A stretch of DNA of 30,550 nt from Deltaproteobacteria bacterium (lineage in GTDB: Bacteria > Myxococcota_A > Polyangia > Haliangiales > Haliangiaceae): assembly GCA_013696695.1 (NCBI GenBank), contig JACCYD010000731.1, forward strand, positions 1 to 30,550, written 5' to 3'. The stretch's first letter is position 1; every line of letters begins with the position of its first letter. The notes beneath the pieces were generated by a model. That model had not been told where the DNA came from and ran no database searches. It saw nothing but the letters and a program-made list of their open reading frames with translations. The position numbers were made by a program, and so were the translations under genes. Below, one piece after another: positions 3,600-13,426 of this stretch.

Positions 3600-3638
3600 G
3601 TCGGCCAAATAAAGCTCGCTGACGCGGTTGTCGTTCAC
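3600..3638 (-). pseudogene. 13-codon remnant of the 5' end of the 954-aa gene (MNDNRVSELYLAD vs MSDDLVSELYLGE)
   Basis: Direct alignment with 13345-13383. The GTG start sits at the same offset (9,745 bp), and the differences are mostly non-synonymous. Confidence 0.7.
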
Positions 3639-3682
3639 GCGGCGACGCCCCTAGCATGGTATGGACGGACATGAGCTCGACG
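3601..3682 (+). repeat. Direct repeat, left copy (82 bp)
   Basis: Hand alignment to 13346-13426: 60/70 identical without gaps, then ATGAGCTCGACG vs -TGAGCTCGACG; 71/82 overall. Confidence 0.95.
3628..3657 (+). promoter_or_regulatory. Putative sigma70-type promoter of the CDP-sugar operon
   Basis: TTGTCG-18 nt-TAGCAT, an AT-rich CAAATAAAG tract upstream, and an ATG at 3671. Pattern match only. Confidence 0.3.
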
Positions 3683-4501
3683 CTGTCTCAGCTCGACGGC
3701 CTCGCTCACGTGCTGTCGAAATCCTTCCAGGACAACGCAGCCGAGCAGACCCACCGTTGGGACAAAGAGTGGATGCGGTACCTCTCGGCAAAAAAGGACT
3801 ACTGGTTCTACTTCTACGACATGAGCAGCGACAACTACGCGCTCGGGATCAGTCCCAACACGATCGCCAAGATGTCGGCAGAGGAAGTCTCCACGACGAT
3901 GTTCTACAAGGACATCAAAGGCGACGCCTGGGTCGCGGGCGCGGACCTCGTGGGCAAGGATGTCCTCGAGATCGGGTGTGGGCCCGGCGTGTTCGGCCGA
4001 CTGTCCGGTCGGCTCTCGAAGAGCTACACCGGCATCGATATCTCGCGGTTCGCGCTGTCGGTCGCGCGGTTGACCTCACCGAAGACGTGTCGGTACTTCC
4101 ACCTCTACGATCCCGCGGGCCTGGAGACGCTCGCGAAGTCGGTCGACCTCGCGTTCGGACGCCACTTCTTCATCCACCACAACTACGAAGACTCGCTGTG
4201 GCTGCTCCAGTTCCTGCGCGACCTGGTGCGCGATGGCGGCCTGATCATGGCCGACTTCTTCTGCGACGCGAAGACCGTCGACGGCGCTCGCCGGCGCAAT
4301 GCCGACCAGCCGCTCTCGGAGCAACACCCGAGCGCGCTGTTCCACTTCGAGGACGCCGACATCGAGCGCCTCGCTGCGGCAGCCGGGCTTCGCTGCGAGG
4401 CGATCGATCACCGTCCCGAGCGGTCGAGCCGGTTCGCCCGGCTCCGCGTCGGAGGCACGACATCAGCGGACGGAGCGTCGACCGTCACGCCAAGACAGTG
4501 A
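3671..4501 (+). CDS. Class I SAM-dependent methyltransferase
   Basis: Motif I VLEIGCGPG and post-I YTGIDIS. Start taken at the second ATG (3671, after GGACGGAC); 3656 is the alternative. Confidence 0.8.
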   Translation: MSSTLSQLDGLAHVLSKSFQDNAAEQTHRWDKEWMRYLSAKKDYWFYFYDMSSDNYALGISPNTIAKMSAEEVSTTMFYKDIKGDAWVAGADLVGKDVLEIGCGPGVFGRLSGRLSKSYTGIDISRFALSVARLTSPKTCRYFHLYDPAGLETLAKSVDLAFGRHFFIHHNYEDSLWLLQFLRDLVRDGGLIMADFFCDAKTVDGARRRNADQPLSEQHPSALFHFEDADIERLAAAAGLRCEAIDHRPERSSRFARLRVGGTTSADGASTVTPRQ

Positions 4502-10531: not shown

Positions 10532-13383
10532 AGCGGCGAAGCTGACGCAGCGAGATGGGCCTGCACGAAGTCCGCGAGCGCACCGGCGTCGACACTGAAG
10601 TTCCGGATCTCGCCGTTCTCGATACTGCTGTCGTCTGTGACGAACTTCGTCGGAAGTACGTCGAGGCGATCGACGCCGTACATGAAGTGAACCCGCCGTT
10701 CCTCGTCGCCCATGTACAGCTCGTTCTCTTGATAGTAGCGGGAGACCAGCGTGACTCCGGGGAGCCTGGCAAGCAACGCGAACAACAAGCCCGAGCCCAC
10801 GATGGAAATGTGAAAGTGACAGCTCAGCGCCCACAACATCTTTTCGGCAGTCGGGACGCCGAGCACCGGTACGCAGGTTGTTCCCGCCAGGGCTTCGGCG
10901 ATGCGCTTGATGACGTGCGTCTCGCGCGCGATCATCTTCTCGTCGACGGCGCTCGGTTTCAGCATGCGAGACCAACCAGCAAGCACCAGCGCCATGTTCG
11001 GGTAGTGCGGCTCGAGCTTGGCGACGACGGCCTTCAGTCCCTCGAGCTGGTTGCTCCAGAGGCGGTCGTTTGCGCGGATCTCGCACCAGATCACCGGAAA
11101 GCGGCCTGCCAGCTTGGCCCTGATGTCTGCTGCGGCGCCATTGCGCTCGCCTTCACGGCGCCACAACTCGACGAGTCGCGTGCCTGCTTTCTCACCGAGG
11201 TAATAGGACGAGATCTGCGGGTTAACGATCAGCGCGTTCTCGTCCAGGCAACACCGGAAGCGCTCGTCGGGAGAGAGCGTCTGGCGCACCTTGGCCGGAG
11301 GAATCTCGGGGAACAGCGCGTCGAGATGAAAGAAGCCGACCTCCCCCTTCAGCCAGAGATCGATCTTCGCGTCATTGCCGGTATCGAACAGCCATTGCAG
11401 TGCCTCGATCTCGTTGAGCACGACGTGGCCCCAGTGACCCAGGGTGTTGAGAGGCACCGTCGTCTTGCGCGGCTCGGTCGTCGTCAGATAGCGCTTGAAA
11501 CGGTCTGCGTTCCGGACGGCGAGACTTCGAAATCCGCGAACAAGTGTGCCGAGCTTGAGCCGCGAAACCACGACCTCGCCGGCCGGGAAGTAGACGCCGA
11601 TACGCGAGCTGCGAAACGGGCAGATGATGAGAAAAAACACCTGGCCCGCGCTCTCGAAGCGGACCAGCACGTACGCGTACCCGGCCGGCTCGCTGACGAT
11701 GAACGTGTCCTTCGATCGAATCGAGTCTCCGGTGAACGGACAGATCCAACGATACTCACGGTCGGCGATCGCCTCCTTCAGATAGGCCCACACTCCGCGG
11801 TCGATCTTCCCGACGAGGGCTCCTTCATCGAGGACGATCTTCGAGGCGTCGATTCCCCTGGACTGAAAAAACGGATGTGTGGCAACGGCAGCCCGAGCGA
11901 GGACTTCTGGATCCGGTCCGAGATACGTCGGACACTCGATCGCCGCCACCACGCTGCCGAGCGCTGACTTCGGCGCATTCAACGAGCGCCACAGCATCAT
12001 CAGACGCTCGGTCTCCTTCGCCTGATGACCACGCTCGCGCAACTCCACACGCGCACTGTCGAGGGTGCCCGAGCCCTGGAGGCGCAAGCCGAGCCGGATC
12101 GACTCGCAATCCCGATGCGGCTTCCAGCGGACCGTCGTGTCGTCCTGGACTGGCCAGGACGTTCTTGCGATCTGCTGCTCGCCGTTGAATTCGATTATCC
12201 ACAGGCTCACCTCGACGCCTGTCGCGATGACCGACAGGGCGAGTTCGACTTCGTCGTCGGGAATACTCAGCGACGACTCGGGACGCCGCGACATCCCGAA
12301 GGCCGGCACGTGCGTGAGATACGACGCGACTTGATCCTTCTGCTCGATGACCGCAGCACCGGAGTCGGTAAAGCGCTCGCCGTCGTGATTCGCGCAAAAG
12401 TAGAAGGGGACCACCCGCATCGCACCGTCGGGCCAATCGACGACGAACGGGAAATACCGCGGTGCGGACTGGATCAGCTTTCCGTCCGTTGTCGGGGGAT
12501 CCGTGACCGCGCGGCGGATCCGCGCGTAGGTCTTGCGCAGCGCCTCGAGCGGCGTGGCGCCGAGCCCCCCGGTGTTGAGCTCGCGCTGCAACGAGCCCAG
12601 GAACGCGGCGAACCCGCGCATCGCCGGCGACGCGCTCGACGGCGGTGTCGTGAAGCGTTCGAGCTCGTGCAACCGCTTGCGAAGCGACTCGAGCTCGGTG
12701 GTCTGAACACGCAGGCTCGACAGTAGCGACTCCGTGACGAGCAGCAACCGCGTCAGCTCGAGGTTCTTCCGCTTGGCATCGACAACCTCCGCTCGCACGC
12801 GCTCGCGCCATTCGTTGCGCTCGAGCCGAGCCGAGTTGGCCTCACGCTGGATCGCGAGGAACGTTGCCTCCGACTGCGCGAGCAGCGCGGCAGCGTCGGT
12901 ATCGACCGCGATCGCCTCGCGATCGGTGCGCACGACGAATCGGATGTAGCCGTCGCGAATGTCGAGGTGCGTCAAGCTTCCGGTGCCGGCGATCGTGGCG
13001 ATGAAGTTGCGCAGGTAGAACGTGGTCCGGCGGTCGGGGTGCAGTCCGAACGGCGTCGTTCCGATCAGCCGGCCGCCCGGCACGACCAGCCGCGCGGCGC
13101 GCAGCCACACCGCGCGCGGATCGGCGTGGTGCTCGAGGATCTCGCCGAGCACCACGGTGTCGAACGTGTCGCCGGGGAGCACGTCGAAGATGTCGGCGAC
13201 GTAGACGACGTCGTGGCCGGCGCGTCCGAGCAGGATCGACACGATGCCCTGGTTACTTCCGATGTCGAGCGCGCGGCCGCGAACCTCCGAAACGAGCCAG
13301 TCGAAGCGGGCGGCGCGCTGACTGGACGTCGAAGCGAAGCCGTCTTCGCCCAAATAGAGCTCGCTGACGAGGTCGTCGCTCAC
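10519..13383 (-). CDS. 954-aa multidomain protein: N-terminal SAM methyltransferase, coiled coil, beta-sandwich module, C-terminal GT-B-like domain of unknown family
   Basis: ALDIGSNQG, FDTVVLGEILEH, PGGRLIGTTPFG; helical E/R/L-rich segment at about aa 165-235. The C-terminal assignment is inference. Confidence 0.75.
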   Translation of the reverse strand: MSDDLVSELYLGEDGFASTSSQRAARFDWLVSEVRGRALDIGSNQGIVSILLGRAGHDVVYVADIFDVLPGDTFDTVVLGEILEHHADPRAVWLRAARLVVPGGRLIGTTPFGLHPDRRTTFYLRNFIATIAGTGSLTHLDIRDGYIRFVVRTDREAIAVDTDAAALLAQSEATFLAIQREANSARLERNEWRERVRAEVVDAKRKNLELTRLLLVTESLLSSLRVQTTELESLRKRLHELERFTTPPSSASPAMRGFAAFLGSLQRELNTGGLGATPLEALRKTYARIRRAVTDPPTTDGKLIQSAPRYFPFVVDWPDGAMRVVPFYFCANHDGERFTDSGAAVIEQKDQVASYLTHVPAFGMSRRPESSLSIPDDEVELALSVIATGVEVSLWIIEFNGEQQIARTSWPVQDDTTVRWKPHRDCESIRLGLRLQGSGTLDSARVELRERGHQAKETERLMMLWRSLNAPKSALGSVVAAIECPTYLGPDPEVLARAAVATHPFFQSRGIDASKIVLDEGALVGKIDRGVWAYLKEAIADREYRWICPFTGDSIRSKDTFIVSEPAGYAYVLVRFESAGQVFFLIICPFRSSRIGVYFPAGEVVVSRLKLGTLVRGFRSLAVRNADRFKRYLTTTEPRKTTVPLNTLGHWGHVVLNEIEALQWLFDTGNDAKIDLWLKGEVGFFHLDALFPEIPPAKVRQTLSPDERFRCCLDENALIVNPQISSYYLGEKAGTRLVELWRREGERNGAAADIRAKLAGRFPVIWCEIRANDRLWSNQLEGLKAVVAKLEPHYPNMALVLAGWSRMLKPSAVDEKMIARETHVIKRIAEALAGTTCVPVLGVPTAEKMLWALSCHFHISIVGSGLLFALLARLPGVTLVSRYYQENELYMGDEERRVHFMYGVDRLDVLPTKFVTDDSSIENGEIRNFSVDAGALADFVQAHLAASASPLHAS

Positions 13384-13426
13384 GCGGCGGCGACCGTAGC
13401 ATAGTGTGGACGGACTGAGCTCGACG
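13346..13426 (+). repeat. Direct repeat, right copy (81 bp)
   Basis: Aligns to 3601-3682. Contains the GTG start of the 954-aa gene and ends at the base before the stop codon of the 511-aa gene. Confidence 0.95.

Follow-up and report, generated by a model that had tools for sequence, protein, structure and literature searches.

A direct repeat around a CDP-sugar cassette in a Haliangiaceae glycan locus, the probable scar of a duplicated gene pair

Why a block of accessory genes comes to be bracketed by two copies of one short sequence, and whether such a bracket makes the block mobile, are the questions raised by contig JACCYD010000731.1 of a Deltaproteobacteria bacterium (Haliangiaceae; assembly GCA_013696695.1). 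The 30,550 nucleotides (nt) analysed, called the window in the following, are an entire contig of a fragmented metagenome-assembled genome (MAG; 1,546 contigs, 74% complete) and contain an operon for a cytidine diphosphate (CDP)-linked sugar between two direct copies of a short element. An original prediction, made from the letters alone, had seen in the repeat the bounds of a discrete unit, gained by circle integration or by tandem duplication and loss, and had proposed that recombination between the copies could switch the sugar modification on and off or amplify it. As discussed below, the repeat is, with good probability, the decayed scar of a duplicated module, in which a short methyltransferase gene and a second methyltransferase gene (MT1) diverge from a common spacer, the duplication having followed from integration of the cassette. 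As such, it adds a new instance to a known kind of event, namely duplicative cassette integration with reciprocal loss, and is not a new mechanism.

The repeat and the anatomy of its two copies

The predicted 82-bp direct repeat, identical at 71 of 82 positions, is found as described, and the similarity turns out to be even longer. Positions 3601-3670 and 13346-13415 align ungapped at 86% identity, with an offset of 9,745 nt; if a 1-nt gap is allowed where the right copy has no counterpart to the A of the MT1 start codon (ATG at 3671), the figure of 71/82 is reproduced and, over a 3-nt in-frame indel, the similarity extends to 3699 and 13440, respectively, with 83 matches in 95 aligned positions (approx. 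87%) between 3601-3699 and 13346-13440. The left copy begins 32 nt past the stop codon (3568) of the gene for a large glycosyltransferase (big GT), and the 82-bp version of the right copy ends one base before the stop codon (13427-13429) of a gene for a protein of 511 amino acids (aa), both as originally placed. When the whole 7.2-Mb assembly was searched by BLAST, the second copy was returned with E = 1.6e-22 and all other matches were no better than E = 0.06, while 0.00 occurrences of a 19-nt core pattern are expected in the shuffled window. The repeat is, therefore, far beyond chance and not dispersed, and a sequence scattered over many unrelated loci can be rejected, only two copies being present in the assembly. 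Both copies are also spanned, in the same context, by Logan contigs of run X1 (record 2, 3406-4411; record 7, 11645-13622); X1 is probably the source sample, hence this support comes from a different assembler and probably from the same reads.

Each copy is made of three parts, i.e. a minus-strand gene start (38 nt, the first 12 codons), a 32-nt spacer and a plus-strand gene start (25-29 nt, the first 8-10 codons), as follows:

3601..3638, minus strand: left copy, part 1, dead start of the short-methyltransferase type (GTG at 3638 and 12 codons, VNDNRVSELYLA)
3639..3670, no strand: left copy, part 2, spacer of 32 nt, presumed shared promoter region, holding the motif TAGCAT
3671-3699, plus strand: left copy, part 3, the first 29 nt of MT1
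13346-13383, minus strand: right copy, part 1, live start, the first 38 nt of a 954-aa gene
13384..13415, no strand: right copy, part 2, spacer of 32 nt, identical to the left spacer at 27 of 32 positions
13416..13440, plus strand: right copy, part 3, dead MT1 start, identical to 3672-3699 at 23 of 25 positions

Only one of the two gene starts is live in each copy. In the left copy, it is the plus-strand start (MT1, ATG at 3671, MSSTLSQLDG), the minus-strand start being dead; in the right copy, it is the minus-strand start, namely the GTG at 13383 with which the 954-aa gene begins (VSDDLVSELYLG), and the start on the plus strand is dead. The dead start on the left matches live starts in two related genomes, G076 (VNDDRISELYLG) and G071 (MNNDRVSELYRG), and in the metagenome contigs L140-L142, with the similarity ending after codon 12. 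Since the orthologs in G076 and G071 begin with this N-terminal peptide, the start is read, from comparison of the sequences, as a true gene relic; no Pfam match was found for the 163-aa open reading frame (ORF) that it opens, which runs antisense through big GT. The dead MT1 start on the right has lost the A of its ATG and 3 further nt by deletion, and would read (M)SSTSRLDG before a stop codon. The identical runs between the two copies are of 12, 10, 10, 9 and 9 nt, the 12-nt run lying in conserved codons. The TAGCAT motif is retained in five of the six element copies that were aligned and, by eye, both spacers of the window have two indels in common with respect to L141, L142 and the left junction of contig L144, which is described in the next section.

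A sigma-54-dependent response regulator (receiver, AAA+ and Fis-type helix-turn-helix domains) is encoded at 27774-29324 on the minus strand, 14 kb from the cassette, and is a candidate regulator of the locus.

Relatives with one copy and with the reciprocal arrangement

The state of the locus without the cassette was found among metagenome contigs. No ortholog of MT1 or of the 954-aa gene was present in the 36 same-genus genomes sampled first (one of these, G009, is flagged as unpublished, and none of the conclusions depends on it), a first metagenome scan with the 954-aa protein gave no match, and scanning of the genome collection with a pattern returned only the two genomes from which the pattern had been built. 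A relaxed DNA pattern of the conserved gene start, searched in metagenome contigs, led to L140, L141 and L142, which stem from much closer relatives; a fourth match, L143, was rejected as unrelated. In L141 and L142, big GT is followed by a convergent gene for a 317-aa methyltransferase, a single element, and MT1, which is convergent with the 511-aa gene, and no sugar genes are present. In both contigs, the two gene starts are live and stand head to head over a 31-nt spacer, and L142 continues into the right-flank synteny of the window. L140 has the same head-to-head pair with one element and no sugar genes, its contig stopping inside MT1. Relatives with the two genes arranged head to head were among the checks named in the original prediction, and L141 and L142 have exactly this arrangement, with the sugar genes absent.

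A third state, which is reciprocal to that of the window, is found in L144, a 111-kb contig of an NCBI MAG that encodes the closest homolog of the 954-aa protein (P0002, 83% identity); the same layout is present in the Logan contig L145. In the left half of L144, big GT (89%) is convergent with a short methyltransferase gene (79% to the gene of L141), followed by a left junction and the cytidylyltransferase gene (98%). In its right half, the aminotransferase gene (93%) is convergent with a 765-aa gene, followed by a right junction and by MT1 (83%), which is in turn convergent with the 511-aa gene. The two junctions are the two copies of the element. The left one consists of the live start of the short methyltransferase gene and a spacer/element 99% identical to that of L142, followed by a 17-codon mini-relic of MT1 (MSSTVGADGALTCPTRQ), which ends in the same ...RQ-stop context as MT1 of the window and passes, at 58 nt from its ATG, into the start of the cytidylyltransferase gene (L144:18292-18349). 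Translational coupling or a role as a leader peptide may account for the retention of this open mini-ORF. At the right junction, the MT1 start is live and MT1 overlaps the 511-aa gene; the opposite strand carries a gene that starts with MNDDPVSEH and then continues at residue approx. 199 of the 954-aa type (L144:10001-12298), which is an in-frame deletion of the methyltransferase core with retention of the first 8-9 codons. Thus, L144 kept the short methyltransferase gene on the left and MT1 on the right, and the window kept MT1 on the left and the short methyltransferase gene on the right. In L147, from another sample, the order is of the window type (MT1, sugar operon, then, convergent with it, a 648-aa gene preceded by a short-methyltransferase-like gene); the contig ends before either element copy.

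The two flanking genes, i.e. big GT and the 511-aa gene, are present in only three of 90 genomes (G093, G076 and G071), and what lies between and around them varies. In G093, one different methyltransferase gene is found there, and this genome was, accordingly, rejected as an exact empty site. In G076, most of the cassette genes are present in another order and MT1 is tail to tail with the 511-aa gene; in G071, a short methyltransferase gene is convergent with big GT. The contents also differ in L141 and L144, and the site is a variable slot between the conserved flanks of a glycan locus.

A second MT1-like sequence, broken over three frames, was observed in G071 directly upstream of the intact MT1 homolog (L052:8572-9096), and appears to be another decayed duplicate of this gene family.

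Origin of the repeat and its alternatives

Because the relics of the window and of L144 are reciprocal, both lineages would derive from an intermediate with two modules. The ancestral locus would have consisted of big GT, the convergent short methyltransferase gene, a 31-32-nt spacer, and MT1 convergent with the 511-aa gene, an order that survives in L141 and L142. Donor DNA carrying a diverged copy of the module along with seven CDP-sugar genes and a gene for a protein of approx. 650 aa would have recombined with the resident module, with formation of a module-cassette-module arrangement, the topology that results when a circle integrates by a single (Campbell-type) crossover or when an unequal exchange has the equivalent effect. 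On the left of this intermediate, big GT would have faced the short methyltransferase gene, followed by the element, MT1 and the sugar operon in the direction of MT1; on the right, the 650-aa gene and a second short methyltransferase gene, both on the opposite strand, would have been followed by the element and by MT1 facing the 511-aa gene. Internal deletions would then have removed the redundant genes, namely the left short methyltransferase gene and the right MT1 in the lineage of the window and, in that of L144, MT1 on the left together with the methyltransferase core of the short methyltransferase gene on the right, each deletion coming to a halt approx. 10-12 codons into the dead gene. 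As the retained dead starts lie approx. 40-70 nt upstream of the surviving divergent gene, we infer that they and the spacer serve as its promoter DNA, which would explain why approx. 99 nt are still recognisable and how dead starts may persist beside a live neighbour.

The proposal that the cassette is a discrete unit gained by circle integration, or by duplication followed by loss, is therefore supported by L141, L142 and L144; what needs correction is the use of the repeat ends as the bounds of the cassette, because 3601/13346 and 3699/13440 are the breakpoints of the two later internal deletions, the module originally duplicated being far longer (about 1-2 kb).

Several observations weigh against this origin or limit how far it can be traced. 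All of the genomes compared are metagenome assemblies, and no donor circle or plasmid was seen, so that topology alone argues for a circle. The scan of both copies for consensus promoters of a simple sigma-70 type and for terminators found nothing, a result that goes against the promoter part of the reading. The two copies of the window are mutually identical at a fraction of 0.87, versus 0.82-0.86 to the single-copy elements elsewhere, and the spacer at the right junction of L144 is very different (0.58-0.60); with such similar identity values and an aberrant spacer, the copies are not assigned to donor or resident. The data are compatible with one shared integration as well as with two independent ones, and with gene conversion. 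Finally, the matches to 3' remnants of the deleted genes are weak and inconsistent (p about 0.06, 0.02 and 0.01). Two such segments are:

3569..3600, no strand: stub of 32 nt between the big GT stop codon and the left copy
4457..4489, no strand: candidate antisense relic of the 3' end of the 511-aa gene, within the MT1 tail

The stub aligns locally with the region of L141 past the big GT stop codon with a score of 10 (p about 0.06), and no better match was obtained with the 3' end of the 954-aa gene; it may be what is left of the 3' end of the short methyltransferase gene that was deleted. Clear homology of MT1 to L141 stops at 4452, and the next 45 nt are collinear with the continuation of L141 (score 14, p about 0.01), which is suggestive only of an antisense relic of the 3' end of the 511-aa gene.

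Integration with reciprocal decay of the modules has parallels in known systems. Clusters for O-antigen, capsule and exopolysaccharide (EPS)-type polymers exchange cassettes between conserved flanking genes, and gene remnants mark their old junctions. The present locus resembles them in its conserved flanks, varying contents, nucleotide-sugar pathway and pseudogene relics at the junctions, but the target is an internal head-to-head methyltransferase pair instead of flanking housekeeping genes. As in Campbell-type integration, the insert lies between direct copies of a sequence of which relatives with an uninterrupted locus have just one, each copy adjoins one resident flank, and both sides of the target are recognisable at both ends; unlike in the textbook case, the partners are homeologous and not identical, the duplicates have decayed reciprocally and the circle is a putative one. 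That the window and L144 keep opposite copies is reminiscent of the reciprocal loss of duplicated genes in sister lineages, with the difference that here it occurs on the scale of a single bacterial locus, and with the dead starts still beside the surviving genes. The locus is an unusually legible record of how a surface-glycan locus gained a whole sugar pathway, of which three states (the pre-integration state and two alternative resolved ones) survive in uncultured soil bacteria, and which displays the steps of recombination at an internal head-to-head pair, duplication of the pair and reciprocal loss.

Foreign DNA would be dispensable if the unit formed by the 954-aa gene, the element, MT1 and the sugar operon had been duplicated in tandem in place and then trimmed by two large deletions. 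Such a history, one of the alternatives in the original prediction, gives the same final topology, and the two spacer indels that the window copies appear to have in common would agree with it. Nevertheless, it is an unlikely one. In the closest relatives, the head-to-head pair is present and sugar genes are missing altogether, and deletions of 2.8 and 6.8 kb would be needed instead of those of single genes. Furthermore, the left short methyltransferase gene of L144 belongs to the resident type (79% to L141), and the element next to it shares 99% identity with that of L142. The divergence between modules is also uneven, amounting to approx. 50% aa identity for the short methyltransferases (the left one of L144 versus the N-terminal 300 aa of the 954-aa gene of the window), 83% aa identity for MT1 (left of the window versus right of L144) and 87% nt identity for the element, which is unlike copies born identical at the same time. 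Since the modules are unequally diverged, a foreign homeologous partner fits better than an in-place duplication. With regard to age, the window copies differ by 13% and the 4-fold sites between the window and L144 by 14-27%, values that are compatible with several histories, and no date is claimed.

A further question is whether the copies still recombine, excising or amplifying the 9.7-kb cassette and turning the sugar modification off or up, as the original prediction had it. Direct repeats do bracket the cassette, relatives free of sugar genes exist, and early excision, when the modules were about 1-2 kb long, would have been plausible; for the present-day copies, such a switch is very improbable. 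According to published reports, homologous recombination is initiated only where strict identity extends over 25-90 bp (PMC9650840; PMC8918686, citing Shen and Huang 1986), and the longest identical runs of 9-12 nt fall below this length. The word depth of the Logan contigs, a coarse measure, is even (5.0-6.8 in the cassette versus 5.3-6.1 in the flanks). Joints from about 13400 to about 3660 (circle) or from about 3600 to about 13430 (empty site), which had been proposed as a check, are absent from the Logan contigs of four runs, in which rare variants are dropped, so that events below a frequency of roughly 10% are invisible at the contig level. As the original prediction had noted, no recombinase is visible: a Pfam search of the major ORFs gave none within the 30.5-kb contig, whose ends bound the view, and neither tRNA genes nor Rfam families were found in the window. 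Excision would, moreover, be destructive and would not bring back the ancestral state: its product would have two dead starts and neither a live MT1 nor a live 954-aa gene, unlike any of the relatives compared and, in particular, the cassette-free ones, in which both genes are live. Thus, although excisable islands and phase-variable deletions likewise have direct repeats around an accessory gene block, here an integrase, a tRNA target, an identical core beyond 12 nt and junction evidence are all lacking. There is similarly slight reason to expect that the decayed copies support rare RecA-independent excision or amplification through short homologies, with low-level glycan heterogeneity as its outcome. 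An accessory block can be bracketed by a direct repeat without being mobile.

That the copies are no relics of a rearrangement at all and were, instead, selected independently or spread as mobile regulatory elements (a shared operator, a mobile promoter) would agree with their position, each directly upstream of a live transcription unit, and with the TAGCAT core in five of six copies; it is, however, highly improbable, because only two copies exist in 7.2 Mb, no Rfam family matches, and the similarity includes recognisable dead coding starts of specific genes, with an in-frame 3-nt indel. A chimeric contig, conceivable in so fragmented a MAG, can be practically discarded, as a second assembler spans both copies, L147 has the same gene order in another sample, in L144 and L145 the cassette again sits between these flanking genes, and a 13% divergence leaves assemblers no room for confusing the copies.

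Genes of the cassette and of its flanks

The genes between and around the two copies are:

2..3568, plus strand: big GT, a large two-domain glycosyltransferase, conserved left flank (Pfam Glyco_trans_1_2, Glyco_trans_1_4 and Glycos_transf_1)
3671..4501, plus strand: MT1, live class-I S-adenosylmethionine (SAM) methyltransferase (Pfam Methyltransf_23)
4509..10531, plus strand: seven-gene CDP-sugar operon, made of the next seven genes
4509-5282, plus strand: glucose-1-phosphate (G1P) cytidylyltransferase (NCBIfam TIGR02623, above cut-off)
5267-6265, plus strand: 4,6-dehydratase (TIGR02622, below cut-off)
6232-7491, plus strand: sugar C-methyltransferase (Pfam Methyltransf_13/14)
7491-8012, plus strand: RmlC-type epimerase (TIGR01221, above cut-off)
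8009-8659, plus strand: NeuD/VioB-type acetyltransferase (TIGR03570, above cut-off)
8670-9410, plus strand: CmcI-type methyltransferase (Pfam RMNT_CmcI)
9407-10531, plus strand: DegT-type aminotransferase (Pfam DegT)
10519..13383, minus strand: 954-aa gene (Pfam methyltransferase domain at the N-terminus only)
13427..14962, minus strand: 511-aa gene, conserved right flank (orthologs at 54-64% aa identity)

The operon is predicted to encode a pathway to a CDP-linked, C-methylated, N-acetylated amino deoxysugar, and the name of rare-sugar cassette that it had been given is a fair one in the light of the NCBIfam and Pfam assignments of its seven genes. Its products are 88-98% identical (aa) to those of L144, the operon is absent from L141 and L142, and the GC content of the cassette is slightly lower (62-65% versus 66-71%), a difference that, like the variable contents between the flanks, speaks for the proposed integration.

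The 954-aa gene is best described, from its domains and homologs, as a read-through fusion of a second short methyltransferase (approx. aa 1-295) with a protein of approx. 650 aa without family match, and should be annotated as a fusion of two genes. Residues 1 to approx. 295 form a class-I methyltransferase with the same kind of ending (...RKTYAR.RRA) as the short methyltransferase that stands alone in L141. In L147, the two halves are separate adjacent genes, the part of approx. 650 aa starting with MERPAFPFVVDW after a stop codon and a 78-nt gap (L147:3-2582), and the closest database homologs (648-766 aa), in which this part occurs alone, are without methyltransferase domain. The search for homology between big GT and the 954-aa protein gave none.

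In G076 (L051/L055, contig C158) and in L146, a 650-aa gene precedes the genes for the cytidylyltransferase, the dehydratase and the C-methyltransferase and points in the same direction as these, so that the cassette is found in a further permutation. Directly upstream, G076 also retains 30 codons of a right-flank gene as a remnant.

Big GT orthologs are 86-89% identical (aa) in L140-L142 and L144, and 64-73% identical by tblastn in G076, G093 and G071 (66-75% in a second genome search); the region downstream of the closest big GT of G076 (contig C78) was rejected, being unrelated to the window past the stop codon. The identity (aa) of MT1 to its counterparts in L140-L142 and L144 is 83-87%, and a sliding comparison of identity revealed no clear mosaic breakpoint within it. 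The adjacency of big GT and MT1 is old, since an MT1 homolog directly follows a big GT homolog in the distant Thiotrichaceae MAG L057.

No significant Pfam or NCBIfam match was found for the 511-aa protein, which leaves the earlier 'GT-C' label of its gene without family support. The last 3-4 codons of this gene and its stop codon (13427-13441) fall within the dead MT1 start, a feature relevant to annotation, as the stop codon lies in relic DNA. In L141, L142 and G076, the gene overlaps MT1 tail to tail by 36-67 nt (52-67 nt in L141 and L142). With the stop codon in a dead MT1 start here and the overlap with a live MT1 in the relatives, the C-terminal tail of the 511-aa gene appears to have been reshaped in every arrangement.

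On the right flank of the window, the real genes are those for a GFO/IDH/MocA oxidoreductase (15593-16534, plus strand) and a second DegT-type aminotransferase (16701-17861, minus strand), the overlapping minus-strand ORFs at 15596-16516 and 16405-17550 being probably spurious high-GC frames. Some of the right-flank tblastn queries (p238, p306 and p381) are, thus, probably antisense frames of real genes, which still report on synteny. Further along, three tandem units of approx. 54 nt, the second and third 93% and 61% identical to the first, are found at 18039-18196, just past the 3' end of the minus-strand gene for a hexapeptide acetyltransferase (18189-18761).

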